Shown here one piece after another: positions 29,379 through 45,140 of a DNA stretch of 64,000 bases. The notes under the pieces were generated by a model. That model was given only the letters and a program-made list of their open reading frames with translations, searched no databases and was not told where the DNA came from. Position 1 is the first letter of the stretch. Every line of letters begins with the position of its first letter. A program made the position numbers and the translations under genes. Source of the stretch: a virus; the IMG/VR virus record IMGVR_UViG_3300022848_000014, positions 9,734-73,733 of that record; one strand, given 5' to 3'.

Positions 29379-29462
29379 CATATTTCTCCGTAAGTACTCC
29401 GAAAGACGTTGCTCAACAGTCGCTTAATGCCATTCGAAGAGAACGGCACGAAGCTTAGTGTT
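29379..29462 (+). repeat. 84-bp array-anchor element (putative attI-like site), copy A
   Basis: Reverse complement of 45051-45134 with 2 mismatches; ends in the GTT core; internal hairpin GCTT-TGCC-TTC/GAA-GGCA-AAGC. Confidence 0.85.
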
Positions 29463-29473
29463 AGCTGCAAGTG

Positions 29474-30307
29474 CTACGTTCCAGTTTTAATTGAAAGTTC
29501 GTACATATCAGCCGTAATAATATTTTTTTCTCCCACCCTCTCTTTTGAGATTTGATACATATCAAAATCATTTTCAATGCCAATGTAGTTTCTTTTTGTT
29601 TCAAAACAAGAAAGTCCAGTTGTATTACTTCCGCAAGTATTATCAAGAACCCAATCATTTTCATTTGAGTAGGTTTTAACAAGGTATTTAATCAACTCCA
29701 GTGGTTTTTGAGTTGGATGTAATGCTGATTTTTGTTTATCAGTAGCAAAACTCAAAACACTTTTCGGGTATCGTTCTGTACTATCATAAGTTGTAAGCCC
29801 ATGTTCACCATAGTTAGTAGTCTTTTTAGAGTTTCTTTTATGCTTTGCTGTGCTTACCTTTCTTTCGTGTCCAGTAGTCTTTTGTGGGTTATACGTTGGT
29901 AATCTCTTGTAGAATACCAGTATGTCTTCGTGGCTTCTCAATGGCATTCTTTTAGCGTTTAAGTGTCCTGTTGGGGTTGTTTTTTGCCAAATTAGATTAT
30001 ATCTATGTAGCTTCTCATTTGAGAGCATCAACCTTGCAGAAAATTTATCCTGTCCGAAAAGAACTATTGCCCCATTTTTAACTATTATTCTTTCGTATTG
30101 CTCCCAAAGTAAATTCAAATCAATGAGTGAATCCCATTTATTCTTAGTTACACCATAAGGTAAATCACAACAAATTAGGTTTATGCTTTGGTCGGGTATT
30201 TGTTTCATCATCTGAAGGCAGTCTCCAAACCAAAGAATGTTTTTGGTTTTTTCAAAACCATCTTTGCCACCGCTCAAAAAAATATTATTACTACGTTCGT
30301 TTTTCAT
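29474..30307 (-). CDS. DNA N6-adenine/N4-cytosine methyltransferase (beta class), cassette A1
   Basis: DLPYG, HPTQKP, DNTCGS motifs. Confidence 0.92.
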   Translation of the reverse strand: MKNERSNNIFLSGGKDGFEKTKNILWFGDCLQMMKQIPDQSINLICCDLPYGVTKNKWDSLIDLNLLWEQYERIIVKNGAIVLFGQDKFSARLMLSNEKLHRYNLIWQKTTPTGHLNAKRMPLRSHEDILVFYKRLPTYNPQKTTGHERKVSTAKHKRNSKKTTNYGEHGLTTYDSTERYPKSVLSFATDKQKSALHPTQKPLELIKYLVKTYSNENDWVLDNTCGSNTTGLSCFETKRNYIGIENDFDMYQISKERVGEKNIITADMYELSIKTGT

Positions 30308-30339
30308 ATCAAAGTTTTGTGTTTAAAATCCGCACCAGT

Positions 30340-30437
30340 CAGCTAACATGGTATATAAAAAATAGCCTATTAAAGTTCGGTGTATAATATCAATGTTTGT
30401 GGTCAGGCTACTTTTCATATACCTGTCCGTTAGCAAC
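30340..30437 (+). repeat. attC-like palindromic site A1
   Basis: CAGCTAAC-ATG-GTATAT..TAGCCT...AGGCTA..ATATAC-CTGTCC-GTTAGCAAC. Confidence 0.8.
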
Positions 30438-30445
30438 AATAAAAA

Positions 30446-30643
30446 TTATTCCTCCCACCAGTAAAGCACCTTAAAGAAGCTCTTTATCATTTCAGGAACA
30501 TCCCATTCATCACCTAACCAAGTGCTTTCCCCTTCACCATTGTTACAAGAAGGTGCATTGTTTTTTATTCTGTATTTACCAACAGAAGTTGGTTGTCTTT
30601 CGTTTGTGCTTACCCAAGCCATAATTTTAAAAGTTGCTAACAA
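30446..30643 (-). CDS. Small hypothetical protein, cassette A2
   Basis: MAWVSTNERQP...W (DUF551-like N-terminus); probable true start at the ATG near 30622. Confidence 0.6.
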   Translation of the reverse strand: MLATFKIMAWVSTNERQPTSVGKYRIKNNAPSCNNGEGESTWLGDEWDVPEMIKSFFKVLYWWEE

Positions 30644-30729
30644 AAGCTATAAATAAAAGCCTTGTTAAGGTTTGTGTGTGAATTGAACTTTGTGTTGAAG
30701 GCTTCAATTCATAGCCTAGTCATTACCTG
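30633..30729 (+). repeat. attC-like palindromic site A2 (core mutated GTT>ATT)
   Basis: GTTGCTAAC-AAAA-GCTAT..AAGCCTT...AAGGCTT..ATAGC-CTAGTC-ATTACCTG. Confidence 0.75.
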
Positions 30730-30736
30730 CAAGTGC

Positions 30737-31876
30737 TTAGACTTGTGCTAAACTTGAAGATTCGTGCTTATCATCCCGTAATAATATTTTTTTTCTCCCC
30801 TCTTTTGATTCTGCTAATATTAGAGCTTTGAATATTTGAAATGCAACCTGGGGTACAATTGCATTTCCGTATGCTTTTATTGATTCTTGTCGCCATTTAG
30901 GAAAGGTAATTCCGTCCAGTTGGTTGGAAATCCCATCATTTCCGCTACAAATTGGGGATTGAGTTGGCCATCTACCATCATAGTAAGTCCAACTTGCTTT
31001 CCTTTCTCCAAACGATTCAGAACGCATTTGTCCTTTGGGTTTCCCCTGTTCCTGTTGTCGCTTGCATTCGGTGTCGGCAACATTCCTTTTTGATTCCACT
31101 TCGCTACCGTTTCTTCCAAATTCCCTTTGTTCCTGTTTGCTAATTTCTCGCTGTTTAGATTGCATCCGTTTACTTGGTTCGCTCTCGGTGTCGGTATTAA
31201 TCCCTGAGATATTTGATGTGATAATGTTGTTTGAACTTTCGTTCCGTCTTTCCTGTACCAAGAGGTTTCCTTCCAAATCCAACCTTTTTCTTTTGCTCTC
31301 TCTGGCGTTATGTTCGCCATTGGATTTGCGCTCGGTGTTGATAGCAATAAACCAGACCCTATCTCTTCTATGGGGAGCGTTGACGGCAGCAGCTGGAAGT
31401 ACACACGGTTGTACTTTGTACCCTTCATTTTCCAAGTCAGCTTGCACCTCGTTGAAAACCAATCCGTCATTCCAACTAATGAGACCAGAAACATTTTCTG
31501 CCACAACATATTTGGGTTTAATCTCTCGAATTGCTCTAAGCATTTCTGGCCAGAGGTGTCGGTCATCTTCTTTACCAAGTCTTTTACCTGCTGAGCTGTA
31601 AGGTTGGCAGGGGAATCCTCCTGTGAGGATGTCAATTTTTCCTCTGTGAATAGAGAAGTCTGTTTTGGTAATGTCTTCATAAGATATTGCTTTAGGCCAG
31701 TAATGTTTTAGTATTCGTTGACCAAATTCGTTCCATTCGCAATGAAATACGTTTTCCCACCCCATCCATTCAGCAGCTAAATCAAAGCCACCAATTCCAG
31801 AGAACAGAGAACCGTGTTTTAGGCTATCGCCTAATTTGCCATCGCTCAAAAAAATATTATTACTACGTTCAGTCAT
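30737..31876 (-). CDS. DNA C5-cytosine methyltransferase (alpha polypeptide), cassette A3
   Basis: SLFSGIGG, GGFPCQP, ENV, RDRVW, GNAIVPQV. Confidence 0.92.
   Translation of the reverse strand: MTERSNNIFLSDGKLGDSLKHGSLFSGIGGFDLAAEWMGWENVFHCEWNEFGQRILKHYWPKAISYEDITKTDFSIHRGKIDILTGGFPCQPYSSAGKRLGKEDDRHLWPEMLRAIREIKPKYVVAENVSGLISWNDGLVFNEVQADLENEGYKVQPCVLPAAAVNAPHRRDRVWFIAINTERKSNGEHNARESKRKRLDLEGNLLVQERRNESSNNIITSNISGINTDTESEPSKRMQSKQREISKQEQREFGRNGSEVESKRNVADTECKRQQEQGKPKGQMRSESFGERKASWTYYDGRWPTQSPICSGNDGISNQLDGITFPKWRQESIKAYGNAIVPQVAFQIFKALILAESKEGRKKILLRDDKHESSSLAQV
30877..31680 (-). CDS. Nested alternative-frame ORF, putative MTase beta polypeptide (TRD/motif IX)
   Basis: 267 aa open frame inside the C5 MTase; repeated L(L/I)PTP units and LNPQFVAEMMGFPTNWT. 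Confidence 0.65.
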   Translation of the reverse strand: MKTLPKQTSLFTEEKLTSSQEDSPANLTAQQVKDLVKKMTDTSGQKCLEQFERLNPNMLWQKMFLVSLVGMTDWFSTRCKLTWKMKGTKYNRVYFQLLPSTLPIEEIGSGLLLSTPSANPMANITPERAKEKGWIWKETSWYRKDGTKVQTTLSHQISQGLIPTPRANQVNGCNLNSEKLANRNKGNLEETVAKWNQKGMLPTPNASDNRNRGNPKDKCVLNRLEKGKQVGLTMMVDGQLNPQFVAEMMGFPTNWTELPFLNGDKNQ

Positions 31877-31910
31877 TTAATTAAAGTTTGTGTTTATTAA
31901 TCGCACCAGT

Positions 31911-31970
31911 CAGGTAACACGCTATAAAAGCCATTGAAAAAACGGCTCTTATAGCTATTCGTTAGGCACA
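31911..31970 (+). repeat. attC-like palindromic site A3 (60 bp)
   Basis: CAGGTAAC-AC-GCTATAAAAGCC...GGCTCTTATAGC-TATTC-GTTAGGCACA. Confidence 0.8.
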
Positions 31971-31983
31971 ATTAAAACAAACT

Positions 31984-32817
31984 TTATTGCATATTAATTT
32001 CGCTCTCCGTTTCGCTTCTTTTATCTAAGTCGTTTATCCCACACATACCATTACAATCAAACAATGGTTTAGGCTCTCTACCTTTCATCATACTAATATC
32101 TTTCATTTGTGGGTAGTCTTTATGTGGTTTTAGAAATACTAATCCACCGCCTTTACTTTGGTCTTTCAACATAGTTATTGGCTTACCTTTAACATTTGTT
32201 AGTTCATGCTCCATCGCTGCCATTTTATCAAATTTATCAGGAAAGTCTCTACTCATTTTCTGCCAATATCCAATTCCACCTTGTACGCATCCAGTCTTAA
32301 AACAATTGTTATTTAAGAACCCTAATTGATACATATTTGGAACTTCAATACTTGCATCTTGTACAATCTTAATACAATCCTTTTTATTCAATCCATGCAT
32401 CATTAAAGGAAATAAAGGTTTTGTTTGTGGATGGTTTAAAACCATCCCTTTTGCTCTCTTATATTCGTCAAGTTCAAACCCAAAAATTTGATGTTTCCAT
32501 TCATTAGTCTTTTCCCACGTTTCACGTACTTGCCTTTTCATTTCAGAACTACATACAGCACCCTTAGCATTGTTCAGTGCTTTGTATCTTCGCCAAACTG
32601 CTTGAACGCTTTCGTGCTTTGTACTACTTATAGTCTCAATCTCTATGCCATACCAATCGGCACAGTCTTTCATAAATCGGTAAGTATCATCGTCTTCATT
32701 ATGTGTATCAATAAAAATAATTCTTACATTTTCTTTACCATACAAATCAATTCCAATTTTACAAGCTACCGCACTTGTAATTCCACCACTCCACCAGCCA
32801 ATTATCTTATATTTCAT
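31984..32817 (-). CDS. PAPS-reductase/PP-loop family protein, cassette A4
   Basis: WSGGITSAVAC PP-loop, C..EMK, NNC..GCVQGG.GYW. Confidence 0.8.
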   Translation of the reverse strand: MKYKIIGWWSGGITSAVACKIGIDLYGKENVRIIFIDTHNEDDDTYRFMKDCADWYGIEIETISSTKHESVQAVWRRYKALNNAKGAVCSSEMKRQVRETWEKTNEWKHQIFGFELDEYKRAKGMVLNHPQTKPLFPLMMHGLNKKDCIKIVQDASIEVPNMYQLGFLNNNCFKTGCVQGGIGYWQKMSRDFPDKFDKMAAMEHELTNVKGKPITMLKDQSKGGGLVFLKPHKDYPQMKDISMMKGREPKPLFDCNGMCGINDLDKRSETESEINMQ

Positions 32818-33218
32818 ATTGCAAATGATTTTAAATATTCCACACCATCTTCTAATGTGTCAAAAACAATATCAGAAACCTGTGTTACAAAGGATAAGTA
32901 ATTATCTTTTATTGTTTCGTGATTTGGTTCAAGTACAGTTATAACCGTTTTACCCAATCCTTTAGCATAACCAGCCTCACAACATAAACCAATACAGCTC
33001 GTGTTTGTTTTTTCAATATAAACAAATAGTATATCACTTTGCTTTATAAAATGCAAATCCCATTTTCCGTACTCATTCACATTCATAATAACCCTTTCGT
33101 TATTCTTAAACTCTTTATCTTTTGGGTTAATCCATTCAATATTATCAGAACATTCTTTTACTTTATTAGCCCAATCGCTCTTAAAACCACCAGCTAAATA
33201 TGTTTTTTGTTTTATCAT
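32814..33218 (-). CDS. Nucleoside 2-deoxyribosyltransferase-like protein, cassette A4
   Basis: YLAGGF, WINP, WDL..I..SD, G...EAGYA..LGK. Confidence 0.8.
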   Translation of the reverse strand: MIKQKTYLAGGFKSDWANKVKECSDNIEWINPKDKEFKNNERVIMNVNEYGKWDLHFIKQSDILFVYIEKTNTSCIGLCCEAGYAKGLGKTVITVLEPNHETIKDNYLSFVTQVSDIVFDTLEDGVEYLKSFAI

Positions 33219-33251
33219 TGTATATATTTTTCATATTTTATAATTAATAAC

Positions 33252-33387
33252 TGTGCCTAACACGGTATAAAAATAATAGCGGTTTTAGGTCTTTATTTAA
33301 GGTTAGTAATATTTATTTAATTCTGTTCTTAATCGTTTGGTTCGTGCGTTTCAATCCGCTACTATTCTTATACAACACGTTACCAAC
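33252..33387 (+). repeat. attC-like palindromic site A4
   Basis: TGTGCCTAAC-ACG-GTATAA.AATAATAGCGG...CCGCTACTATT.TTATAC-AACAC-GTTACCAAC. Confidence 0.8.
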
Positions 33388-33395
33388 AATAAAAA

Positions 33396-33554
33396 TTACT
33401 CGTATTGGTCGCTGTCTTTTATCGTTTCAAGAGCACTAATCCTGTCTTGTAAAACTTTCTTCTCTCTCATTAATAACATTATATCTTCTTCCGCTTTTTT
33501 CAAATATAATTTAGTATCCTTTATTGCTGCATCAATTTTTGTCATTTTACTCAT
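33396..33554 (-). CDS. Small coiled-coil protein (52 aa), distal cassette remnant
   Basis: Read by hand: MSKMTKIDAAIKDTK...DQYE*; flanked by GTTACCAACAATAAAAATTA, nearly identical to the start of cassette A2. Confidence 0.5.
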   Translation of the reverse strand: MSKMTKIDAAIKDTKLYLKKAEEDIMLLMREKKVLQDRISALETIKDSDQYE

Positions 33555-33943
33555 GGTGTCTTGTGCTTTTCAGTTTTGTATACGATTCCTCCTGGTACGA
33601 AAACTTTACCGTTGTATTTTAGGTGTTCATCCTTGTTGTCCGTCCAAAATAATTCAAAATCGGAATAAACACTAAGATCATCTCGATCAGAGTAGACGCG
33701 AAACTTCATCGACTCTTCTTTTCTTAGCTTCAGGATAGCCTCTCCCTCACCCACGAAAATATACTCATGTCCGTAGTCTGCTGTCAATGACTCCACATAT
33801 ACTTCTGAAGGGAAATACAAGTGATAGGTAGTTTTCTGTGCTTTACACGAATTGAATAGGAAGAAGGTTAAGAAAATTATTCCTGCAGCGAGGGCGCTTA
33901 ATGTGTAAATGTACTTGCCAATAAAATGATCAGTCCTTGTCAT
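33551..33943 (-). CDS. Membrane-anchored hypothetical protein
   Basis: N-terminal TM segment. Confidence 0.6.
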   Translation of the reverse strand: MTRTDHFIGKYIYTLSALAAGIIFLTFFLFNSCKAQKTTYHLYFPSEVYVESLTADYGHEYIFVGEGEAILKLRKEESMKFRVYSDRDDLSVYSDFELFWTDNKDEHLKYNGKVFVPGGIVYKTEKHKTP

Positions 33944-33955
33944 GTTGCTTTTTTT

Positions 33956-34363
33956 TTATTGTTGTTTAATTTTACGTGGAAGCCTCAGGTACCATCTATT
34001 TCCTAAGGGCCTCATACTTTTAAGTTCAAAGACAAGAGCATCAATGAACTCTCTATCATACTTGTCTTTTTCTAACTTAAGACAATTCCTACGATTGAAA
34101 ATAATATTTAAGTTTCGATCAAAGTACTGCCGAATTTGTGCTGAGGTAAACTTTCTCTTGTTTTTATGTGGAAGCCTCAGGTACCATTTATTCCCTAGCA
34201 CCCTGAAGGTTTGAACTCCATCAAAAAGAATGTCATTGTACACCTGCTCATAGGTGTATATTTCTATTTTCTGACAATTACCACGATTGAAAATAAGATT
34301 TAAGTTTCGGTCGAAGTACTGCCGAATTTGTGTTTGGGAAAACTTTCTAAAATAATTTCTCAT
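33956..34363 (-). CDS. Hypothetical protein with internal tandem duplication
   Basis: RKF...QIRQYFDRNLN.IFNR.NC...LGN.WYLRLP occurs twice. Confidence 0.7.
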   Translation of the reverse strand: MRNYFRKFSQTQIRQYFDRNLNLIFNRGNCQKIEIYTYEQVYNDILFDGVQTFRVLGNKWYLRLPHKNKRKFTSAQIRQYFDRNLNIIFNRRNCLKLEKDKYDREFIDALVFELKSMRPLGNRWYLRLPRKIKQQ

Positions 34364-34529
34364 CTATTTATCTGTTTACCTTGGATTATCTCCATGTGCT
34401 TAAGGTTGTATTGGTGTCGTGGCTGATGTAGATTACAAAACTTGAGACTCCAACACGCCCCTTTATCGCGAACCAACCACTCTGAAGTAGCTCTTTTACC
34501 ACAATTGCATTTCCCATGAACCGCCACGG

Positions 34530-35105
34530 CTAATTTCCTGAAAACATTCCTGTGGATGCCTCTGGTGCTTTTGGGTCTGGCATAGAAAGGTATCGGTCAA
34601 GTATCTTGTCCCTTAAGATGTACTCTGGGGTCAAATACTTCATTCCATTCTCTTGGTGAAACGAATCCATCTTTGCCCGATAAATAGCTTTGTGTATTTC
34701 CTGAATGCCATATTTTTCGAAAGCTTCAGCAAAGATCTTCTTAGAGCTTTTATCACCCCTCGACTTCTTGCTGGTAATCTCATTGAATCGCTTGATAAAC
34801 TCCTTGTACTGGGGGTGATTGGTGATGCTGATCTGCTTAAGCTTAAGAAGCTTGTAAACATTAGCTTCCATATCTTTTAGGGTCCCTGGCACTCTCTCAA
34901 GGACTCCACACAAAATAAGTTCGTCTACCGCAAACCATTCCTCACGTCTCTCATAAACCAAGACTTGATTATTACGGAGTTTTATAGGTGTGTCGCTTGG
35001 ACTCTCCTTTTGACGAATCGCCAAACATATTAGTCTCAAGTAAGACTGAAATGTTTCGGGTGAATGGGTATTGAGGTGATTGAAATCACTTATGTCTAAT
35101 AGCAT
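34530..35105 (-). CDS. Replication initiator-like protein with conserved phage C-terminal domain
   Basis: FN.IT.K...MKYLTPEYILR...DRYL (Phg_2220_C-like). Confidence 0.6.
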   Translation of the reverse strand: MLLDISDFNHLNTHSPETFQSYLRLICLAIRQKESPSDTPIKLRNNQVLVYERREEWFAVDELILCGVLERVPGTLKDMEANVYKLLKLKQISITNHPQYKEFIKRFNEITSKKSRGDKSSKKIFAEAFEKYGIQEIHKAIYRAKMDSFHQENGMKYLTPEYILRDKILDRYLSMPDPKAPEASTGMFSGN

Positions 35106-35415
35106 GTTTTGGGGTCTTTAAGTAATTGATTGCGGTTTCATTCATCAAAATAAACTTGGGGCCAGTCATTGGGTCTAACTCCCCTTTGGCATTAAGTTTA
35201 GGAAACGGATAGACAACTTCAAAGATTGATGTTCCTGGCTCTATCTTACGCGAAATTGTTGATAGCCCTACTCTGGCTAATGACGCAAACACACCTATAG
35301 GAATCGCGTTCCACCGCAGGTAATACCTTGCGCTTTCTCGGTCTACACCCTGTTTGACTATTTGTTCCTGAAGATCAATATTGAGACCCAGGACTGGCCT
35401 TAGTTTATATGTCAT
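35086..35415 (-). CDS. Hypothetical protein, possible HTH
   Basis: First gene after the 35434 promoter; FASLARVGLSTISRKI. Confidence 0.55.
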   Translation of the reverse strand: MTYKLRPVLGLNIDLQEQIVKQGVDRESARYYLRWNAIPIGVFASLARVGLSTISRKIEPGTSIFEVVYPFPKLNAKGELDPMTGPKFILMNETAINYLKTPKHAIRHK

Positions 35416-35433
35416 TTGTGGTTTATTTGATTA

Positions 35434-35464
35434 CAAATGTAGCAGACTATTCTAGGAAAACAAA
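35434..35464 (-). promoter_or_regulatory. Bacteroidota housekeeping-sigma promoter TTTG-N19-TACATTTG
   Basis: Exact -33/-7 consensus with a 19-nt spacer, upstream of the leftward replication arm. Confidence 0.8.
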
Positions 35465-35472
35465 TTTTACAA

Positions 35473-36156
35473 TTAGAATTGTATTACTGAGTATTGAATT
35501 CCAATTCCAATGTTTAACCCAAAACCGTTGTCCCCAATGCCATAAGACACTGAGGGACCAACGCTGAATCTTTTTGGCTTCAAGCTGTAATTGAAAGAGC
35601 TCAGGTCTTGGGTATAGGTATCTGGATTTAATGATGTCGCCATTATCTGTAGCGTATCGGGTCTGAATAGATTCTTCTCCCTATGTACACTGTAATCAAA
35701 CTTGTTCAAAATCCTCTGCTGAAGGTTAAGGCTGTCTACCCCCATTGTTACAGTTCCTTCTATCCACTCCGTACTGAAGGAGGATTGATAGACAGGCATA
35801 CTATCACGGTATTCGATTATTGTGACCTCATCTGTGCCAATGTCGTATAGAGTCTCTACATCATGGCTTATAGCGGTAATTGTGTTCTTAAGGTCTTTTA
35901 GGGTATTCTGGATTCTCAGGTTTGTCCCCTCTAATCCACGAAGGGCTAACAACTGATCCCGATTCTGAATCTCTAGGGAATTCTTTTGAGCCACTTGATG
36001 ACCATGCTTGTTCTGCCAGGACCGCAGACTATCATTGAGGGCTATTTCATTCTTCTTAAATGTTTGAGTCCTTTGATTGGATTCAACAATAACACCTGCG
36101 GAACAGGCTATTGCTATTATGGCTACTAACCATGCTACCTTTTCATTCATACTCAA
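35473..36156 (-). CDS. Spanin-like envelope protein
   Basis: N-terminal TM/signal, coiled coil, C-terminal amphipathic beta hairpin ending in F (FSVGPSVSYG...IGIGIQYSVIQF). Confidence 0.5.
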   Translation of the reverse strand: MSMNEKVAWLVAIIAIACSAGVIVESNQRTQTFKKNEIALNDSLRSWQNKHGHQVAQKNSLEIQNRDQLLALRGLEGTNLRIQNTLKDLKNTITAISHDVETLYDIGTDEVTIIEYRDSMPVYQSSFSTEWIEGTVTMGVDSLNLQQRILNKFDYSVHREKNLFRPDTLQIMATSLNPDTYTQDLSSFNYSLKPKRFSVGPSVSYGIGDNGFGLNIGIGIQYSVIQF

Positions 36157-36207
36157 ATGTATAAAAAAACCCCCATCTGCTTAAGATGAGGGTCAAACCT
36201 AACACTA

Positions 36208-36684
36208 CTATGAAAAGTTATGCCAACCAGGATTAATGTGCAAGAAAGAACTTGACAATCCTGAATTGAATATCCTATTATAGTCTCCGGGGTCTATATG
36301 CGCTGAGGCTGTCTTGTCGGGTAGTTCCAGGGCAGGAGGATTTTCAATATTTAGGTTATAAGTCCAGTATCGACTTTCCCTTGAGTCTGCTTCATGCTTC
36401 AAGTAGCAATTACAATAGGAATACTCTAAGTCTTCCTCTAATGTAACGAACATGTCGCCAGCTTCAGGGAATAGAGTCATTTCCAGACTTGAATAGACAC
36501 CGATAGTAAAATCGTTGTCAAGGGTCACATCAACTATGCTGATGTCAGGTGGGGCTTCTTCCACAGGGAATACCGTCGAGGCACTTGCGGAGAAAGAGAA
36601 CACCAAGATGGCCATTAAGCCGAACAGTGTTTTTTTCATCTTTTTGTTTTTAGTATAATAACATTTGATTCCAAACATAGCCAC
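36208..36684 (-). CDS. Secreted hypothetical protein
   Basis: Signal peptide MKKTLFGLMAILVFSFSASA from the internal ATG near 36639; followed by a terminator-like hairpin at ~36163-36193. Confidence 0.55.
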   Translation of the reverse strand: MAMFGIKCYYTKNKKMKKTLFGLMAILVFSFSASASTVFPVEEAPPDISIVDVTLDNDFTIGVYSSLEMTLFPEAGDMFVTLEEDLEYSYCNCYLKHEADSRESRYWTYNLNIENPPALELPDKTASAHIDPGDYNRIFNSGLSSSFLHINPGWHNFS

Positions 36685-37355: not shown

Positions 37356-37373
37356 TCTCAAACCACACGTAAA

Positions 37374-37659: not shown

Positions 37660-38037
37660 ATGGCAGAACTATTTAACCGTAATAAAGTAGCATCTAAAGG
37701 ATTGCACAATTACATCCAACGAATGCTTAAGGCAAAGGATAAACGCGAAGTCTTGAAATTATTGCGGGACTATGCGCCCATCACCAACAAAGCACAGCGA
37801 CTTATCCTTGGGTTAAAGCCAAACTACTTTAATGTGTTCATGATGCAGAGGGTAGAATACTACACCAATAAGCATGTGAGTGATGAAATGGTGATGTTAA
37901 GAGAAGTATTCGTTCCAGAATTATTGGAGCAAATCAAGGAGATAGCCGTTAAGGAAAATCGGAACGAAGAGAAGTTAGTCAAGAATTATATTTTAGGTAA
38001 AAACATAAAATCCAAACCGTATGTCAAAGAAAAATAG
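37660..38037 (+). CDS. Hypothetical protein
   Basis: 125 aa ORF. Confidence 0.6.
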   Translation: MAELFNRNKVASKGLHNYIQRMLKAKDKREVLKLLRDYAPITNKAQRLILGLKPNYFNVFMMQRVEYYTNKHVSDEMVMLREVFVPELLEQIKEIAVKENRNEEKLVKNYILGKNIKSKPYVKEK

Positions 38038-38314
38038 TGCAATTCCTGTTGGGGATAGAGTACTTGTAATCCCTGATCAAGCCCAGCAAGAGATGTTTGG
38101 GCTTATGATTCCCTCTCAAGCTCAAAAGAAAGTCCAGACTGGTAGAGTAATAGCTGTTGGTAAAGGGAAGGGCGAATTGGAAATGCAGACAAAGGCTGGG
38201 GATACAATTCTCTACAGTGACTTTGCTGGAACTGAAATCAAAATCGATGATGTTGTTCATATCATCATGCGTGAAACCGATGTTTATTGCATCCTTAAAA
38301 ATGAAGAAGTATGA
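38021..38314 (+). CDS. groES: Co-chaperonin GroES
   Basis: PVGDRVLV, GLMIP..A..K, GRVIAVGKG, KAGDTILYSDFAGTEIK. Confidence 0.95.
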   Translation: MSKKNSAIPVGDRVLVIPDQAQQEMFGLMIPSQAQKKVQTGRVIAVGKGKGELEMQTKAGDTILYSDFAGTEIKIDDVVHIIMRETDVYCILKNEEV

Positions 38315-40068
38315 GAAAAAAGTTAATTGAATTCGATAATGCCAAGGAAAAGATGGCTCTAGGGGCTAATAAACTGGCAAGGGCTGTTTCATGTACCCTG
38401 GGACCAAAAGGTAGGAACGTTGTGCTCTATCTTGAAGATGGCCGAATGCACACGACAAAAGATGGTGTGACTGTAGCACTCTTTACAAAGTTCTTTGATC
38501 AAATAGAAGATGCTGGTGCCACGTTCCTTCAGGATGCATCAAAGAAAACGGTTCACCAGTCAGGTGATGGGACAACTACTTGTACACTCGTAGCCAATGC
38601 GCTCATCCAGCAAGGGGTGACATACCTCAAGGATAAGATGCACTCTGCTGTGGAGTACACAGATGGAATTCAAAAAGCCTCTAGGAATCTAATCGAAGAG
38701 TTGGTGCAGGAGTCAATCGAAATCAATGGGGATTTAGATATGATTGAGAATGTTGCTAGGATAAGTGCCAACAACGATGCTGAACTAGGGAAAATCATCC
38801 GTGAAGCTATTGAGGCTGTGGGTTTAGATTCCATCATTCAGGCAGACGACAGTGGGGACAACACCACTTCAGTTAAAGTAGTAGATGGAATGGAATTCCA
38901 AAATGGATTCAAGCACCCTTACTACATTAATGACCATAAGGGTCGGTGTGTGTTTGATGACAAGAGTGACAAGGTGAAAGTGATCATTATAGACAATGAC
39001 CTTACGACACTGAAGCAAGTAATTATGATGATGAAGCATATTGGGGAGAACAACCTGAAGGCTGTCATTGTATGCAATCAAATGATTGGTGAAGCAGATA
39101 GTGTAGCCCTTGTCAATGTCCAAAATAATGGGCTAAAGGTTTGTGTAGTCAATGCCCCAGGCATGGGGGACCGAAGACGGGCTTATCTCAGGGATTTAGG
39201 GATATTCACTGGTGCCACGGTAATCGGTGATGAAACGGGCACGGAGATCGAAAATTTCAAGCCAGAATGGATGGGTACTTGTGAGAAGTTTGTGGCAGAT
39301 GCTAAGACCTCCCGATTCATTATGGGGGGTAACGTTCCTGACGTTGTTCAGGGCGATATTGATTCTTTGAAATTAAAGATGGTTAAGCCTGGCCCAGAGA
39401 GTTCAATGGAAGCAAGGGCTAATTACACAAGGCAAAAGCAAGAAGTAAAGGATCTCTACGAAAAGAAGAAGTTGATTACAAATGAGATCGGAAGTATTGA
39501 GACTCAAATTGGTAATACAACAGATGCCTTTGCTATCAAGAAGCACAAAGAACGCATTCAGAGGCTCAAGGGTAAGGCTGCAATCATCTTAGTAGGGGCA
39601 CAGACCACTCAAGAGCTTCGTCAAAAGAAAGATCGAGTAGATGATGCCATAAAAGCTACTCAAGCTTCAGTTGAGGAAGGAATCGTGCCTGGTGGTGGTG
39701 TCAGCTTCTATAATGCCATGAAAAGGGTAACGCTTAATGATCCTTATGCTGGTGATGAGACACCTGAGCAAATAGGTTACTACGCATTCCTAGATGTGAT
39801 GTCTGAAGTTCTGATTAAGATTTGCGAAAATTCAGGGTATGACGTTGCCTCTACTATAGCAAAGATGGAAGCTCGGAAAGACATGCAATTTGGTCTTAAC
39901 GCAAAGAGTGGTGAATTCTGCAACCTGATAGACGCAGGGATCATCAATCCTACTAAAGTTGATCGTGTAGCAATTGAAAACGCGACATCTTCAGCTTGCA
40001 CAATGCTATTGTCGGAGTGTGTTATATACCCCGATCCTGAAGCATTTGAAGAGGTGCCCCAGCAATAA
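38311..40068 (+). CDS. groEL: Chaperonin GroEL
   Basis: TLGPKGRNV, TKDGVTVA, GDGTTT, ISANND, EEGIVPGGG, GIINPTKV. Confidence 0.95.
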   Translation: MRKKLIEFDNAKEKMALGANKLARAVSCTLGPKGRNVVLYLEDGRMHTTKDGVTVALFTKFFDQIEDAGATFLQDASKKTVHQSGDGTTTCTLVANALIQQGVTYLKDKMHSAVEYTDGIQKASRNLIEELVQESIEINGDLDMIENVARISANNDAELGKIIREAIEAVGLDSIIQADDSGDNTTSVKVVDGMEFQNGFKHPYYINDHKGRCVFDDKSDKVKVIIIDNDLTTLKQVIMMMKHIGENNLKAVIVCNQMIGEADSVALVNVQNNGLKVCVVNAPGMGDRRRAYLRDLGIFTGATVIGDETGTEIENFKPEWMGTCEKFVADAKTSRFIMGGNVPDVVQGDIDSLKLKMVKPGPESSMEARANYTRQKQEVKDLYEKKKLITNEIGSIETQIGNTTDAFAIKKHKERIQRLKGKAAIILVGAQTTQELRQKKDRVDDAIKATQASVEEGIVPGGGVSFYNAMKRVTLNDPYAGDETPEQIGYYAFLDVMSEVLIKICENSGYDVASTIAKMEARKDMQFGLNAKSGEFCNLIDAGIINPTKVDRVAIENATSSACTMLLSECVIYPDPEAFEEVPQQ

Positions 40069-40105
40069 TTGAATGCAATTAGTTAAACCCTAAATACAGA
40101 GTAAA

Positions 40106-40369
40106 ATGCCAGAATTAGATAACGGTGAACCCCAAGCGTCAAGACCATTGACTTTTGGTGAGAAAGCAGTGGGACTAAGATTTAACCCAGGCGGTATGAC
40201 TGAAGTAGATGAGTGCAAATCTATCTTTGCAGAAGCAATTGATCAAATGCATGATTTCCGAGAGTTGGAAAGCTCTACCAAAGGTCAAAAGCGTCATGCT
40301 TCTATTGCCATTACAGAACTTGAGTCAGCACAAATGAGAGCCGTTAAAGCTCTTACTTGGAAAGACTAA
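40106..40369 (+). CDS. Acb2/Tad1-like protein (putative cyclic-nucleotide sponge)
   Basis: GEKAVG..FNP...K...A..ID...RHASIAITELESAQMRAVKA helical-hairpin motif. Confidence 0.6.
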   Translation: MPELDNGEPQASRPLTFGEKAVGLRFNPGGMTEVDECKSIFAEAIDQMHDFRELESSTKGQKRHASIAITELESAQMRAVKALTWKD

Positions 40370-40375
40370 AGTAAA

Positions 40376-40448
40376 GCCAAGGCTCATTTGCAAATTGTCT
40401 TTCATTGTGGCGGGTAGTAGGAGAATCCTACGACAAATGGGTCTTGGT
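40376..40448 (+). ncRNA. Structured intergenic element, copy 1
   Basis: Outer stem GCCAAGGCTCATTTG/CAAATGGGTCTTGGT, inner hairpin GTAGGA/TCCTAC; related to 40943-41013. Confidence 0.55.
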
Positions 40449-40452
40449 AAAT

Positions 40453-40559
40453 TCGGAAGTGGCGAAATGGTAGACGCTATTAATAGGATGATGTTGGTGG
40501 AAAAGAAAAGCGCACCCAACTAAAAAACATCCATGTAGGTTCGAATCCTGTCTTCCGAA
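40453..40559 (+). tRNA. tRNA-like RNA with no canonical anticodon arm
   Basis: Acceptor TCGGAAG/CTTCCGA, Leu-type D arm TGGCGAAATGGTAGACGC, T loop GGTTCGAATCC; central ~57 nt forms a long irregular hairpin. Confidence 0.65.
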
Positions 40560-40599
40560 CTAATAATCAAATAATTTATATTCATCTAAAAACCGCAAA

Positions 40600-40932
40600 A
40601 TGAACGAAGCAAAAATGTCAGAACCAGGATCAAGACAGACCTGTTCATCAGTATTACGTGATATTACTGATTCAATAGGCCATACCCAAGATGTTCTAAA
40701 CGAACTAGAGCGTAATATGGGTCAATTCTTTGACTCTTCCTCAGAAGATGATGCCAAAGGGCCCATAGCTGCAGAAGCAAAAAACTCCTTGAATGGTGAG
40801 ACAATCCATGAGGTAGTGTTTGGTCATGGTGACAAGTTTTCTTTTCACACGCTAAACCAAATTGCCCACTTAACTAGTACACAGTCGAGTCAATTGACAA
40901 GGATTATGGATCAAATAAACACGAACCTTTAG
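40600..40932 (+). CDS. Hypothetical protein
   Basis: 110 aa ORF. Confidence 0.6.
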   Translation: MNEAKMSEPGSRQTCSSVLRDITDSIGHTQDVLNELERNMGQFFDSSSEDDAKGPIAAEAKNSLNGETIHEVVFGHGDKFSFHTLNQIAHLTSTQSSQLTRIMDQINTNL

Positions 40933-40942
40933 TAAAACATAA

Positions 40943-41013
40943 GCCAAGACCCATTTGCTTTTTACAAATTGTAACTCGGCATGGGAAACTCCCATTAGTA
41001 GGTGGGTCTTGGT
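40943..41013 (+). ncRNA. Structured intergenic element, copy 2
   Basis: GCCAAGACCCATTTGC...GTAGGTGGGTCTTGGT, inner hairpin ATGGGA/TCCCAT. Confidence 0.55.
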
Positions 41014-41035
41014 AATTTTATAAACCACAAAAAGA

Positions 41036-42209
41036 ATGATTATTACAGCCAAACCAATTCGAATCGGTACTTCTGGGAGCAATGGTAAGTTCCGAAAAGA
41101 AGTTTCCTCATTGTACGACATTCATAAATGGATGAGTGAAAAGAGTGGTGAAATGCTAACGGTTAAGCTTAAGAAGAATCAACTTTTCTCTCAGCCCAAG
41201 ACTCATGCCGAAAGCCGTGAACAAGAGTATGCGATAAGACACCACGCAAAAAATTTCAGATCGGCAGGAGAAGGTTTACGATCAAGCCCCTTTACTTTTT
41301 GAGTAAATGAATAATTCAAAAAACATATTAGAGTCTTTTGATTTTCTGGACGAGCTAGGTAAAAGCTGGTCTAAATCCAGAATGAATGAGCCTGGCAGGA
41401 TTGTCAGAACATCTAAGGGTGTCATTGGGAGGATAGTAAACTCAGAGCCTTCAGTTACAAAGGGGAAAATAGCAGTCTATACCAAGGAAGATACTATCTT
41501 GTGTAGCCCTGACTCACTAAGAACAATTGGATTCATAAACTAAGATGAACGAGGATCACTTTGAATTTATAGAGTATCGGATGTCCATTATTGATGGTCT
41601 AGTCAGGAAAATAGCAGTTTACCGTGAGCGCCCAATTGTTGTGACTGGGAAGTTTATAGGGTTTAAAGAAATAGATTTTGATGAAATTGACCAGTTCCAA
41701 GACTCATGGACTGAAGAAGAGAAAGAATTATACAATCCAAACCACAATAATCTAAAACGCTAATGTCAACAGATGAAATTTATACTACTGGATTCCATGT
41801 AAAATCTTATGAAATCGTTACTGATTTTCTAGAGGAATTAACTTACAATGATCAATTTCACCCCGAAGGTGAGAGAACTGTTTTTGTCACAAAAACAAGG
41901 GAGGTTCCTGTTATTCTTTACAACACCGTTCTGTCTATAGACAAACCTGTTAAGGCTGGTAATCACTATATGGAAATGGAGACTGAAGCACTCTTTATTG
42001 CTGTGGGGACGGAGCTAGTGAGTGTTAAACTCTTGAATGAAGTTGAATTGTTTGCTTATAGCTCTCCTGTTAAATTGGTGCTTGTTAGTTCACCCTTTGA
42101 TGAAGCTGGCCAAGGATTACATCTTGGGGAAGAAGACATGCATTTGCGAGTACGTCCAATGTCACCACTAGACTGCTTTCCTGGTCCCATACCTACTGAA
42201 GAAGATTAA
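41036..42209 (+). CDS. Four small hypothetical ORFs (41036-41302, 41307-41543, 41545-41763, 41763-42209)
   Basis: Tightly packed plus-strand ORFs. Confidence 0.6.
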
Positions 42210-42231
42210 TCTACAATGATCGTTAATATCA

Positions 42232-42693
42232 ATGTACATATCAAAGAAAACAAGGGAGGTAGTCCGGTTGAAGTTTGGGGGGCTCTGCGCCTATTCTGGG
42301 ACTGTATTAGAGAGCGATTGGCAAGTAGATCACCTTAAGCCTTTGATTAGGGGTTATGATGGAGCCCCACGGTTTCCTGAGAGGCATTCAATTGATAACA
42401 TGGTTCCTTCTCAAAAAATCATTAATCATTACAAGGGAACACTCGATCCAGAAACCTTTAGGTCTTGGTATCTTGGGGGACTCCATGAGAGGCTGAAGAA
42501 ACTCCCCCGAAAAACTAGGGTCAAGAACACAAGAAACAGGAAGAGGTATTTAAGGCGTGTTGCCTCATTCTTTGATATTACACCTGACACGCCATTTTCA
42601 GGAATCTTTTATTATGAAATACATAAACCACAACATGGGACAATTAGAGGAAACACCAGAAGAAAAATCAAAAAGATCAGCACAACTAATTGA
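42232..42693 (+). CDS. HNH endonuclease
   Basis: KFGGLCAYSG...WQVDHLKP...NMVPS...NHYK. Confidence 0.8.
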   Translation: MYISKKTREVVRLKFGGLCAYSGTVLESDWQVDHLKPLIRGYDGAPRFPERHSIDNMVPSQKIINHYKGTLDPETFRSWYLGGLHERLKKLPRKTRVKNTRNRKRYLRRVASFFDITPDTPFSGIFYYEIHKPQHGTIRGNTRRKIKKISTTN

Positions 42694-42961
42694 GATGGCC
42701 AAGCTGTATCTGCTTCAGATTGACGAAAATCACTTAGAATCAGTGTCAACCCAGCTACACACACAAGCATCTAGGCAGGAGTCAATGTCCATCATTAATA
42801 TGCATTACTATCCAGAGAAGACGCAAATACTAAGAGCTCAGGCTGGTGCTTTGGGTGCTTTGTTGTCATTTATTAGTCATCTCAAGGAAATCGATCAGTT
42901 GAAAAAGACCTTAGACAAAGCCAAGCAGGGTAGGGAGCAAATAGATAGATTGTTTTTGTAG
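42635..42961 (+). CDS. Hypothetical protein
   Basis: ATG 42635 after an AAACCAC leader. Confidence 0.55.
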   Translation: MGQLEETPEEKSKRSAQLIEMAKLYLLQIDENHLESVSTQLHTQASRQESMSIINMHYYPEKTQILRAQAGALGALLSFISHLKEIDQLKKTLDKAKQGREQIDRLFL

Positions 42962-42964
42962 TTC

Positions 42965-43270
42965 ATGCGTCACAAAGCCTATAAAACTGACTACAGTTGG
43001 CATTATCTTCAGATCAAGGAAAGATTGAAGAATGCTTTCATAAAGGATGGATTCAGTAGATCTTTTTATGGTGATTACTTGAGTAAGGAAATACTCTATA
43101 GCCTCCTGTTTGAATTCAGAGTGGGTGATCCACCTAACTGTAGCTCTAGGGGCTCAAAGAAAGATTGGAGAGACTGGCATATTGTTCTTGAGACTCATGG
43201 GACTTGGCTCAAGTTTTATCAGTTCTATCTTTGTTCAGTTGATATTTATGAATGGAATAAAATAAAATGA
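42965..43270 (+). CDS. Hypothetical protein
   Basis: 101 aa ORF. Confidence 0.5.
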   Translation: MRHKAYKTDYSWHYLQIKERLKNAFIKDGFSRSFYGDYLSKEILYSLLFEFRVGDPPNCSSRGSKKDWRDWHIVLETHGTWLKFYQFYLCSVDIYEWNKIK

Positions 43271-43282
43271 AAACAGAGCAAA

Positions 43283-43507
43283 ATGAAAAACAATAAAATT
43301 ATAAGCAGTTTTAAATATTGGGCAATCACTAGAAAATGGTTGTGGCAAAGAGTCGTTTTTGATAATGGTGTTGTTGGCAGAAACTATCACAGATATGACC
43401 ATATCTTGTATTCTTATTGTCAAGGAATGGGTGATAATGGAGAGTATGGAGGTATTAATACCGTAATAAAATTACAAGTGGAATCATCTATGCGTAATTG
43501 TGCCTAA
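43283..43507 (+). CDS. Hypothetical protein, distal cassette remnant of array B
   Basis: Stop codon lies within the TGTGCCTAAC core. Confidence 0.55.
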   Translation: MKNNKIISSFKYWAITRKWLWQRVVFDNGVVGRNYHRYDHILYSYCQGMGDNGEYGGINTVIKLQVESSMRNCA

Positions 43508-43565
43508 CGGTTTGTATATGAAATCGGCTGACGATAGGAAGCTGTTTTATATACCGTGTTAGCCA
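43499..43565 (-). repeat. attC-like palindromic site B2
   Basis: Plus strand: TGTGCCTAAC-GGTTT-GTATATGAAA...TTTTATATAC-CGT-GTTAGCCA. Confidence 0.8.
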
Positions 43566-43602
43566 TCTGGCTGTGGTAAATTAAGAACTAAAATTAAATA
43601 GA

Positions 43603-44247
43603 ATGAAAATATTAATAGCTTGTGAGGAGAGCCAAGAAGTTTGTAAGGCTTTCCGAGAAATAGGATTTGAGGCTTATAGTTGCGATATGCAAGAATGTAG
43701 TGGTGGTAAACCTGAATGGCATATTGTAGGTGATGCAGTTGTAGAAGCGTATAGTGGTAAATATGACCTTATGATAGCGCACCCACCTTGCACTTATATT
43801 AGTAGAGCTGGTGCAAGATGGATGTACCCAACAGCAGGAAATTTAAGCCAAGAAAGATTTAATAAAGCAATGGAAGCGAAGGATTTGTTTATGAAATTAT
43901 TGAACGCTCCTATACCTTATATTGCTGTTGAGAACCCAACATTGTTAAAAGTAGTTGGATTGCCTAAACAAAGCCAAGCGGTGCAACCTTATGAATACGG
44001 ACACCCTTATAGTAAAAGAACTCTGCTGTGGATTAAAAATTTACCACTATTAAGCCCAACCAAAATAGTAAGCGAATATAAGCCGTACTTACCAAGTAAT
44101 ACAGGGGGCAAAAAACGAGGGCAGAAATATCAATTTAAGAACATAAGCCAAAAGGAAAGCAGTAAAACTTTTAGCGGAATTGCAAAAGCTATGGCTGAAC
44201 AATGGGGAAACTTCATTAAAAGCGATAATGTAGCAGCTTGTGGCTAA
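43603..44247 (+). CDS. Phage-type C5-methyltransferase-like protein, cassette B2
   Basis: ILIACEES, AYSCD, DLMIAHPPCTY, VENP, PYEYGHP..KRT.LW, AMAEQWG. Confidence 0.8.
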   Translation: MKILIACEESQEVCKAFREIGFEAYSCDMQECSGGKPEWHIVGDAVVEAYSGKYDLMIAHPPCTYISRAGARWMYPTAGNLSQERFNKAMEAKDLFMKLLNAPIPYIAVENPTLLKVVGLPKQSQAVQPYEYGHPYSKRTLLWIKNLPLLSPTKIVSEYKPYLPSNTGGKKRGQKYQFKNISQKESSKTFSGIAKAMAEQWGNFIKSDNVAACG

Positions 44248-44312
44248 CGTGTTGTATATGATTAAGCGATAGCGACCCTTTTTAGGGTTAATTATATACG
44301 GTGTTACCTGCA
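44241..44312 (-). repeat. attC-like palindromic site B1
   Basis: Plus strand: TGGCTAAC-GTGTT-GTATATGATTAA...TTAATTATATAC-GGT-GTTACCTGCA. Confidence 0.8.
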
Positions 44313-44335
44313 GTACGGATTATTAAAAACGAAAT

Positions 44336-45040
44336 ATGAAAAGAAACAAAATATATTTAGGGGATTGTTTAGAGTTGATGCCTAAACACGTAGAAGATAA
44401 AAGCGTTGATATGATTTTTTGCGATTTACCTTATGGAACAACACAAAACAAATGGGATAGCGTTATACCTTTTGAGCCACTTTGGGAACAATATAAGAGA
44501 GTTATAAAAGATAATGGAGCTATTGTGTTATTTGGCTCACAACCTTTTACAAGTGCTTTAATTATGAGTGAACCTAAAATGTTTAAATACTCTTGGTATT
44601 GGTTAAAAAATAGAGCTACTGGAGTTTTAAACTCTAAAAAACAACCGTTAAGAAATATTGAAGAAATTTGTGTTTTTAATATAAAGAAATATAACCCACA
44701 AGGATTGATTGAGGTGAACCAACCAAGTAGAAACAGCAAGAAAGATTACGATAACTATGGGAAAGGAACTAGTAAACAATACACTCAAAAATACACAAAC
44801 TACCCAAAGCAATTGATTGAGTTTAATAGCGTGCAAAGAACAACGCACCCAACAGAAAAGCCATTAGATTTAATTGAATATATGATTAAGACTTACACAA
44901 ATGAAGGTGATTTGATACTTGATAATACTTGTGGAAGTGGAACAACTGGAAGAGGAGCGAAGAACTTAAACAGAGATTATATTATGATGGAGCAAGAAGA
45001 GAAGTATTATGACATTGCTTGTAAAAGACTACTAACTTAG
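44336..45040 (+). CDS. DNA N6-adenine/N4-cytosine methyltransferase (beta class), cassette B1
   Basis: DLPYGTT, HPTEKP, DNTCGSGTTG. Confidence 0.92.
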   Translation: MKRNKIYLGDCLELMPKHVEDKSVDMIFCDLPYGTTQNKWDSVIPFEPLWEQYKRVIKDNGAIVLFGSQPFTSALIMSEPKMFKYSWYWLKNRATGVLNSKKQPLRNIEEICVFNIKKYNPQGLIEVNQPSRNSKKDYDNYGKGTSKQYTQKYTNYPKQLIEFNSVQRTTHPTEKPLDLIEYMIKTYTNEGDLILDNTCGSGTTGRGAKNLNRDYIMMEQEEKYYDIACKRLLT

Positions 45041-45050
45041 TATTGCAGGT

Positions 45051-45134
45051 AACACTAAGCTTCGTGCCGTTCTCTTCGAATGGCATTAAGCGACTGTTTA
45101 GCACCGTCTTTCGGAGTACTTACGGAGAAATATG
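45051..45134 (-). repeat. 84-bp array-anchor element (putative attI-like site), copy B
   Basis: Inverted copy of 29379-29462, 82/84 identical. Confidence 0.85.
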
Positions 45135-45140
45135 GGTTTT

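Follow-up and report, generated by a model that had tools for sequence, protein, structure and literature searches.

We analyzed the ends of two integron-like gene arrays in a 64,000-nt window (bases 9734-73733) of the IMG/VR virus record IMGVR_UViG_3300022848_000014, a phage record of 73,733 bp with direct terminal repeats (G000 below). A 92-nt repeat, which we call E, is present in inverted orientation at the distal ends of the two arrays. With modest confidence, we interpret E as the resident, backbone-side end-site of an integron-like phage cassette array that has no integrase (a cluster of attC sites lacking an integrase, CALIN), with cassettes being exchanged at the AAC on the cassette side of E. 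E is attI-like in position and probably in role, and attC-like in build. Two findings are new here: E-type sites are a separate subtype of site, and the core of E is shared between apparently unrelated phage backbones.

A repeated element at the distal ends of two gene blocks

Two gene blocks occupy 29.4-45.1 kb of the window and diverge from about 36.7-36.9 kb. Both terminate in an N6/N4 DNA methyltransferase (MTase), MTase A on the minus strand and MTase B on the plus strand, and each of these genes is followed by a copy of E (E1, 29379-29470, minus strand; E2, 45043-45134, plus strand). A repeat search recovered the copies as an inverted pair that is 97% complementary (89 of 92 positions identical), with 15,572 nt between them. 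A previous sequence-only reading of this DNA had reported inverted copies of 84 nt at both array ends; the repeat is as reported and slightly longer. The 19-nt hairpin of E, GCCATTCGAAGAGAACGGC, has two exact occurrences in the window compared to none expected in shuffled sequences, and the whole 73.7-kb record contains two copies of E and no more.

The two methyltransferases are 44% identical in amino acid sequence. When their loci were aligned together with the flanking DNA, nucleotide identity rose from approximately 60% to 97% a few bases past each stop codon, and the high identity stopped at an ATG (sequence end GGAGAAATATG). Read in the direction of the genes, E consists of TTGCAG[C/G]TAAC, ACTAA, GCTT, CGT, GCCGTTC, TCTTC, GAATGGC, ATT, AAGC, GACT, GTT[G/T]AGCA[A/C]C and GTCTTTCGGAGTACTTACGGAGAAATATG. 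The copies differ at three positions. Two are in the box toward the backbone (GTTGAGCAAC vs GTTTAGCACC); the third, a C/G difference in the box adjoining the cassette (GCAGCTAAC vs GCAGGTAAC), agrees in each copy with the start of the neighboring cassette. Identity had been thought to end just past the GTT core. Instead, it continues for 8 nt of cassette sequence, since one widespread 3' shell (..TTGCAGSTAAC) terminates both cassettes.

E can be divided into a 49-nt core and a leader on its backbone side. The core of E1 (29414-29462, minus strand) reads AAC-ACTAA-GCTT-CGT-GCCGTTC-TCTTC-GAATGGC-ATT-AAGC-GACT-GTTG, and that of E2 (45051-45099, plus strand) is the same module with the end GTTT. 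E1 occupies the interval from the MTase A stop codon to the first codon of an open reading frame (ORF) of 56 amino acids, and its leader (29379-29413, minus strand) comprises two CGGAG repeats 11 nt apart, a GGAG ribosome binding site and the ATG of this ORF (29211-29381). Downstream of the ORF are a P-loop ATPase and, at a greater distance, a YqaJ-type exonuclease. E2 comes after the MTase B stop codon and is opposed by a convergent gene; in its leader copy (45100-45164, plus strand) the ATG, at 45132, opens just 10 codons, a vestigial ORF that runs into the convergent gene and whose TGA ends at 45164. The CTCCG direct repeat noticed in the sequence-only reading is indeed present at both copies, with a spacing of 11 nt (29386-29390 and 29397-29401, mirrored at 45112-45116 and 45123-45127). 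Because identity ends at the ATG, which heads the 56-aa ORF at E1, the final 35 nt of the repeat, with both CGGAG repeats, appear to be the co-copied 5' leader of the 56-aa gene, that is, lineage-specific leader, ribosome binding site and start codon DNA outside the conserved core. An exact 22-mer from this flank had zero matches in an IMG/VR search, and blastn searches of cultured phages with E, and with internal site S4 (see below) plus leader, returned nothing useful.

The E core is shared between phages with different backbones

The 19-nt hairpin of E was found in four further IMG/VR contigs: L187 (47 kb, 94% complete; its record is G001), L188, L189 and L190. The 49-nt core is near-identical (~98%) in all four, which represent two backbones besides that of G000. 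Homology among contigs with the E core always begins at the AAC, and the gene-side flank differs each time. L187 and L190 are 99.2% identical over 4.5 kb starting exactly at AAC-ACTAAG, and are unrelated leftward of it. L188 and L189 are 99.8% identical from AAC-ACTAAG on and differ leftward; both contigs end approximately 130 nt beyond. The proposal that E abuts a variable cassette in other genomes is therefore borne out at the AAC/GTT box by both pairs. On the other side, the three lineages (this phage, L187/L190 and L188/L189) diverge from GTTG onward, and the CGGAG repeats are absent from the other flanks. The conserved flank of ~35 bp that had been ascribed to the element thus holds for the two copies here but not for other lineages. 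Comparison of the lineages by tblastx, using the whole record for G001 and short loci for L189 and L190, detected only MTases and E in common.

The DNA on the gene side of E is varied. In G001, four cassettes are present to the left of E, the last of them with an N6/N4 MTase, and the start/end rule described below is kept (GTTATGTGT...ACACATAAC abutting E). In L189, an MTase ending in ..GCACTTGTAGGTAAC adjoins E. L190 is without attC-like hairpins upstream of E and has a gene-side neighbor that is not an MTase; the boxes of its E pair with each other (TTTCAAC/GTTGAAA), as those of an unoccupied site would. The L190 lineage also has a variant copy, E'; E and E' each head a real gene, and these repeats are direct. 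Altogether, the E core has at least six gene-side and three backbone-side neighbors and does not accompany one cassette, as an attC would. Conversely, a cassette 89% identical to that of MTase A is present in L027 and L028 (records G005 and G004), where it starts just after the AAC of S4, includes the hairpin and extends to its own TAAC. In both contigs a different sequence replaces E after this cassette. Because the MTase A cassette occurs without E and the core has varied neighbors, E neither travels with the methylase nor acts as an ordinary cassette attC, and the possibility raised in the sequence-only reading that it always accompanies this MTase family is not supported. A more distant MTase homologue (60%) is encoded by Tenacibaculum phage Larrie, in which no AAC/GTT sites were found around the methylase.

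These data also bear on a simpler explanation, in which E is the ordinary last attC of an N6/N4 MTase cassette that was duplicated in inverted orientation together with its attC and 40 nt of downstream DNA, with later gene conversion or replacement and no special role for E. Both copies of E follow an N6_N4 methyltransferase, MTases of this family are found at five of the six gene-side neighbors of E-family cores, E2 retains a vestigial ribosome binding site and ATG, and the analogous element of phage P12002L is named attC by Qi et al. (PMC9892861). However, the MTase A cassette in L027 and L028 lacks E, the E core is ~98% identical beside MTases that are only ~44% identical and also beside the non-MTase gene of L190, and E-type sites systematically differ from internal sites, are always terminal, and have right flanks consisting of backbone rather than cassettes. 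It seems quite unlikely that a segmental duplication of this kind accounts for E.

E-type sites are a separate subtype found at array ends

Seven E-family sequences could be aligned to a 17-bp structure in which every cell was paired. Four pairs are changed on both sides in E' (GCTT/AAGC to AAGAA/TTCTT), and two G.T pairs are invariant. A covariance model made from this alignment detected diverged members, each in a terminal position, in L025, L014, L005, L113 and L111, of which L113 and L111 have a common backbone flank and different, compensating stems. The E-type members read AAC-AC(T/C)(A/G)A ... (G)ACT-GTT, compared to AAC-G ... (N)GT-GTTA for all internal sites that we mapped. We mapped eight arrays, the two described here and those of G001, L198, L014, L025, L113 and L005. 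In all eight, the E-type site was the last on the gene-3' side and was never internal. The view in the sequence-only reading that E is a terminal element and not an ordinary attC within the array therefore stands.

The sites appear to fold on one strand. In the outer stems of 28 sites, the gene-sense strand shows 47 G.T pairs compared to 1 A.C mismatch, and the internal sites S4, S2 and G fold better on this strand, which together indicate that the sense strand is the folding strand. If the sense strand is equivalent to the 'bottom' strand of integrons, cut at the 5' AAC between AA and C, then crossover would fall on the side of E that faces the cassettes, consistent with where homology breaks at AAC, and every cassette gene would be reverse-oriented relative to classical integrons. 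Sense-strand folding and the breaks at AAC also support the earlier proposal that E has the same polarity as the other sites. Searches of Rfam, which holds no attC model, gave no family match on any site.

Cassettes and internal sites of the two arrays

The attC-like sites (AAC, 4-6 nt, imperfect stem-loop, 2-3 nt, GTTA) are confined to the distal ends of both blocks, five in 29.4-33.4 kb and three in 43.5-45.1 kb, and are integrase-less, as expected of a CALIN. Their AAC and GTT boxes frame imperfect palindromes and, judged by eye, partly match the extended consensus RYYYAAC/GTTRRRY. Array A, on the minus strand, begins with site S1 (33259-33381) and continues with S2 (31916-31963), S3 (30636-30727; GGTAAT-GACT-stem...stem-TT-GTTAGCAAC) and S4 (30345-30431; AAC-GGACAG-stem...stem-CAT-GTTAGCTG), which is kept together with MTase A in L027 and L028. 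Array B, on the plus strand, begins with site F (43506-43560), followed by G (44246-44305). The last cassettes are those of MTase A (29474-30307, minus strand, 277 aa) and MTase B (44336-45040, plus strand, 234 aa), both members of the N6_N4_Mtase family. Beyond their boxes, the internal sites are mutually dissimilar, and E alone is repeated (twice). Other cargo includes a C5 MTase, a PAPS-reductase-like and deoxyribosyltransferase-like pair, small ORFs and, identified by eye and without a Pfam match, a second small C5-like MTase. Every cassette gene reads toward E in both arrays, as the sequence-only reading had it, and each cassette has its own conserved leader.

The start of a cassette is complementary to its own end. 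Complementarity extended over 5-7 nt in nine of ten cassettes from this phage and G001, the tenth having been mis-located by the script, compared to means of 0.9 nt for within-site pairs and 1.1 nt for non-cognate pairs. Complementarity of this kind would be expected of cassettes with a circular intermediate that is closed at the box. The box at the far end of each array is only weakly complementary to the backbone-side box of E (GTTGCTAAC / GTTGGTAAC vs GTTGCTCAAC; one indel), and this match is not counted as evidence.

Cassettes share terminal sequences that we refer to as shells. In about 20 viral contigs, one 5' shell (GTTASCTGACTGGTGCG and the leader) comes after hairpins of many kinds, and the sequences that come after the matching 3' shell (..GCACTTGCAGSTAAC) are likewise varied. 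Matches to the shell motifs in bacterial genomes were mostly due to chance, and those in Bacteroidota looked genuine; there was no array and no nearby integrase in the 8-kb loci around the Bacteroidota matches.

Several observations concern particular shells. The 5' shell common to MTase A and the C5 MTase (30263-30358 and 31835-31929) is composed of the box, the leader and the N-terminus M.NERSNNIFLS.GK; they also have in common a 3' shell (..GCACTTGCAGSTAAY), at the 3' ends, near 29516-29531 and 30790-30805. In each shell, the core is enclosed by a perfect inverted repeat of 16 nt, GTAATAATATTTTTTT / AAAAAAATATTATTAC. In about 15 IMG/VR contigs a shell of this type surrounds cores of 616-1354 nt, and its 'N-terminal' part is non-coding in some of them. 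Salt-lake contigs have cores swapped inside the shell (joints from 29531 to 30263 and from 30971 to 31349). The C5 cytosine methyltransferase (30737-31876, minus strand) has a low-complexity middle in its main frame, which population contigs replace, and a nested ORF of 267 aa in another frame (30877-31680, minus strand) covers its target-recognition region. In a Bacteroidales metagenome-assembled genome (L214, OY764960.1), at oriented position ~1138, a copy of a cassette leader (cgtGTTAGCTGACTGGTGCGgataatttagtacaaac) lies between two copies of TTTCAATCGCACCATACTGGAATTGAAAT and looks like a CRISPR (clustered regularly interspaced short palindromic repeat) spacer aimed at the shared cassette shell.

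Arrays and E cores in a salt-lake population

Near-identical DNA is present in many salt-lake metagenomes. The closest cultured relatives of the phage are Flavobacterium phages, which are distant, and a Cyclobacteriaceae metagenome-assembled genome holds a 77% homologue of one backbone protein. The backbone ATPase (28224-29210) has relatives of no more than 47% identity in metagenome contigs and an identical protein in six contigs; a single-protein search gave no relative in IMG/VR and none among the genome contigs.

We mapped Logan contigs from four salt-lake runs on positions 28000-46500. Such contigs show that an arrangement exists, not its frequency or the direction of change. The summed depth of the cassette regions was 3-100 times that of the backbone, and unitigs ended at cassette borders (for example, 29460-30348 and 44277-45055). 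In one contig (depth 30.7), the end of a 214-aa cassette, ..GTGGCTAAC, abuts the E core directly and the MTase B cassette is absent. There were also loose ends in one lake in which E cores were attached to flanks of the L187/L190 and L188/L189 types; three E-bearing phage lineages thus co-occur in one salt lake.

E1 and E2 could instead be the inverted repeats of an invertible 15.6-kb segment carrying both arrays, of the Gin/Hin or flip-flop type, as suggested by their 97% complementarity in inverted orientation and by the segment between them, whose symmetric ends read outward. We consider this very unlikely. The genome has no invertase or resolvase (a search of G000 for PF00239 found nothing), the corresponding repeats of P12002L and of the L190 lineage are direct, and a flip would leave all gene-promoter relations unchanged. 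In addition, no joint between the outer flanks of E1 and E2 was among the salt-lake joints listed, a weak argument given that unitigs cannot cross a 92-nt repeat.

Comparison of E with known sites

CALINs with N6/N4 MTase cargo have been described in virulent phages, including Polaribacter phage P12002L (L200 in our labels), by Qi et al. (2023, Front Microbiol, PMC9892861). Only two attC sites are predicted in P12002L in that paper, and one of them, P12002L_attC2, is recombined into attI1 by IntI1 from the bottom strand only; in the parts of the paper cited here, the element is not described as repeated, terminal or of a distinct class. We found a 77-nt direct repeat (97%) in the P12002L genome, at 29172-29248 and 37198-37274, with both differences in the cassette-adjacent box. 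Each copy is at the distal end of an array with MTase or Mom genes, one preceding a gene and the other at a convergent junction. According to Table S3 of the same paper, the 77-nt element is P12002L_attC2, which indicates that the architecture of E is recurrent and that its closest analogue is a published functional attC. P12002L resembles G000 in being an integrase-less virulent Bacteroidota phage with orphan N6/N4 MTase cassettes at distal operon ends, in sharing the identical box sequences TTTTTATTGTTGCTAAC, TTTTAATTGTGCCTAAC and GTTAGGCAC, and in having its end element at two array ends. In contrast to E, that element has another sequence, a weak AT-rich fold, and direct rather than inverted copies.

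Like the attI site of integrons (e.g., attI1), E is located at a fixed array end, where a conserved platform meets the first cassette at GTT/AAC, and it has one fixed sequence per platform whereas the cassette sites vary. It differs from attI in several respects. There is no adjacent divergent intI gene and no Pc promoter reading into the cassettes, whose genes read toward E. E is an imperfect palindrome with a covarying stem, as in attC, and not a non-palindromic site. The direct repeats in its flank are not kept between lineages, unlike DR1 and DR2, and its core is found on three backbones without detectable similarity over the DNA compared. The proposal of an attI-like platform in the sequence-only reading is thus upheld insofar as E is a discrete terminal anchor abutting variable cassettes, but the anchor is an attC-type hairpin and the E-bearing phages have no recombinase gene. 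The AAC/GTT-framed imperfect palindromes, the signature of folding on one strand and the complementarity of each cassette start to its own far-end box are all properties of attC sites and CALINs.

Chromosomal integrons contain reverse-oriented, self-promoted cassettes whose genes are on the folding ('bottom') strand, as exceptions within the array. Here, in contrast, every cassette in every mapped array is so oriented.

Evidence bearing on an RNA-level alternative

Several of our results weigh against the interpretation of E as an end-site for site-specific exchange. As single-stranded DNA, E folds only modestly (about -10 kcal/mol, z about -1.6) and equally on both strands, and the G.T bias on the sense strand is equally expected of an RNA hairpin. 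The shells are joined to varied hairpins and sequences, indicating that homology also breaks where a hairpin ends in GTT; classical integrons, by comparison, have a polarity that is one-sided. In L028 (G004), the sequence that closes the array beyond the MTase A cassette is single-copy and not E-type, and duplication of an end-site is therefore not universal. The salt-lake contig without MTase B more likely comes from another phage than from a deletion variant, because its depth is ~10 times that of the backbone of this phage. Tyrosine recombinases, Y1 HUH transposases, serine recombinases or resolvases and NinG are all absent from G000 and G001. Finally, the phage encodes a YqaJ-type exonuclease module of its own, a short distance downstream of E1, and homologous exchange at short conserved blocks would be possible.

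In an alternative reading, E and the cassette hairpins would be RNA-level elements at operon boundaries (a terminator, insulator or processing hairpin followed by a Bacteroidota-type promoter and leader), and cassettes would be exchanged by homologous recombination at these short blocks, shared between co-infecting phages, through the phage exonuclease and annealing system. The promoter early stem-loops (PeSLs) of T4-like phages, modules of a promoter and a stem-loop that are proposed to shuffle genes by homologous recombination, provide a precedent (PMC2839356, PMC4122927). PeSLs are likewise short modules located beside accessory genes in the hyperplastic regions of lytic phage genomes, and they coincide with the breakpoints at which relatives differ by insertions, deletions or replacements. 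The G.T bias being on the transcribed strand, the exonuclease module adjoining E1, the lack of a recombinase gene, the shells with a 16-nt inverted repeat around different cores in many contigs, and the co-duplication of E and leader up to the start codon in this phage, the L190 lineage and P12002L are all consistent with this alternative. On the other hand, PeSLs are alike, whereas the internal sites here are AAC/GTT-framed, follow the start/end rule and are too dissimilar from each other for homologous recombination. The breaks fall at the AAC and GTT triplets and are not scattered inside conserved blocks, and the complementarity between the start and end of a cassette has no obvious reason if exchange is homologous. 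There is no U-tract after the E hairpin, and E2 and copy B of P12002L head no gene. The P12002L analogue is a bona fide IntI1 substrate (PMC9892861). We think it rather unlikely that E and the cassette hairpins act at the RNA level and that exchange is homologous.

A possible mechanism of cassette exchange

If E is a recombination end-site, it would belong to the same class as the intergenic attC-like hairpins (AAC, spacer, imperfect stem-loop, spacer, GTT) and form a separate subtype of it, AAC-AC(T/C)AA...(G)ACT-GTT. A cassette would comprise a hairpin, GTTA, its own promoter-like leader, a gene and a terminal ...TAAC, and would mostly carry orphan DNA methyltransferases or other DNA-modification genes. 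Crossover at the cassette-side AAC of E would insert, remove or replace cassettes; the array would grow away from E, with its genes reading toward E. Crossover may be site-specific and involve a folded sense strand, corresponding to the 'bottom strand' of integrons and cut at its 5' AAC between AA and C. For a circular MTase A cassette, the predicted junction is ..CAGCTAAC followed by GGACAG.... The second copy of E may have arisen when E, together with the 56-aa gene's leader, was duplicated to the distal end of the opposite block, after which the neighboring cassette would have been replaced.

The enzyme for such a reaction would probably come from the host. No match to PF00589 (tyrosine recombinase) was found in the 73.7-kb record at an E value of 1 or less, and there was none in G001 (94% complete) or G004 (100% complete). 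No other candidate recombinase was common to the E-bearing phages. Given that G000 and G001 contain no recombinase gene, supply by the host seems the simplest assumption, and, since IntI1 acts on the P12002L analogue, our first guess is an integron-type tyrosine recombinase. Matches to Y1_Tnp, resolvase and NinG were found only in G004, those to Y1_Tnp and resolvase also in G005; the phage of these two records, which shares the MTase A cassette, encodes an IS200/IS605-type Y1 transposase and a resolvase, and the E-bearing phages do not.

More broadly, and only tentatively, E-type sites may represent primary capture sites of a class that has escaped recognition: a hairpin-type functional counterpart of attI in an integrase-less cassette system of Bacteroidota phages, with reversed gene polarity, serving self-promoted cassettes on the folding strand, acted on by a recombinase of the host or some other source, and allowing trade of anti-restriction genes and even whole arrays between apparently unrelated, co-occurring phages.

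Other features of the window

Outside both arrays, another AAC...GTTA hairpin site (12258-12351, plus strand; GGCTAAC-ACGTTG..stem..TTTAT-GTTATGGG) heads a plus-strand block at 12-20 kb. A hairpin-bearing repeat, ACCACCGCCCCACAATTTAAAACGTTGTGGGGTTTT.., occurs in four copies (13145-13218, 14077-14150, 14983-15056 and 15363-15436) that are probably terminator/promoter units of this block, which also contains a Type-P3 twister ribozyme (16912-16981, plus strand; 50.9 bits vs a gathering score of 39.9). Tandem 187-nt units with 76% identity are present at 33970-34348, in or beside the ORFs at 33956-34363. A phage-encoded chaperonin of the Cpn60/GroEL family (585 aa) is located at 38311-40068 on the plus strand, and an ORF of 3664 aa (46248-57242, minus strand) lies just past E2. 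Because ARAGORN made no call anywhere in the window, we rejected a candidate tRNA at 40370-40599, where there are tRNA-like pieces (..GGTAGACGC.. and ..GGTTCGAATCC..).

Implications for cassette arrays of lytic phages

Clusters of attC sites in lytic phages have hitherto been treated as stray integron fragments. The data presented here suggest that they are organized, with a specific end-site that is distinct from the internal sites and has a structure conserved across diverged phages. In several genomes this end-site is duplicated, seeding a second array. The motif AAC-ACYAA..GACT-GTT provides a simple sequence handle for finding such arrays, and P12002L with its Polaribacter host is a cultured system of this kind. 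If our interpretation is correct, phages maintain a landing site of their own for cassettes with methyltransferases and other counter-defense genes, and this would help to explain the fast turnover of anti-restriction genes in natural phage populations.

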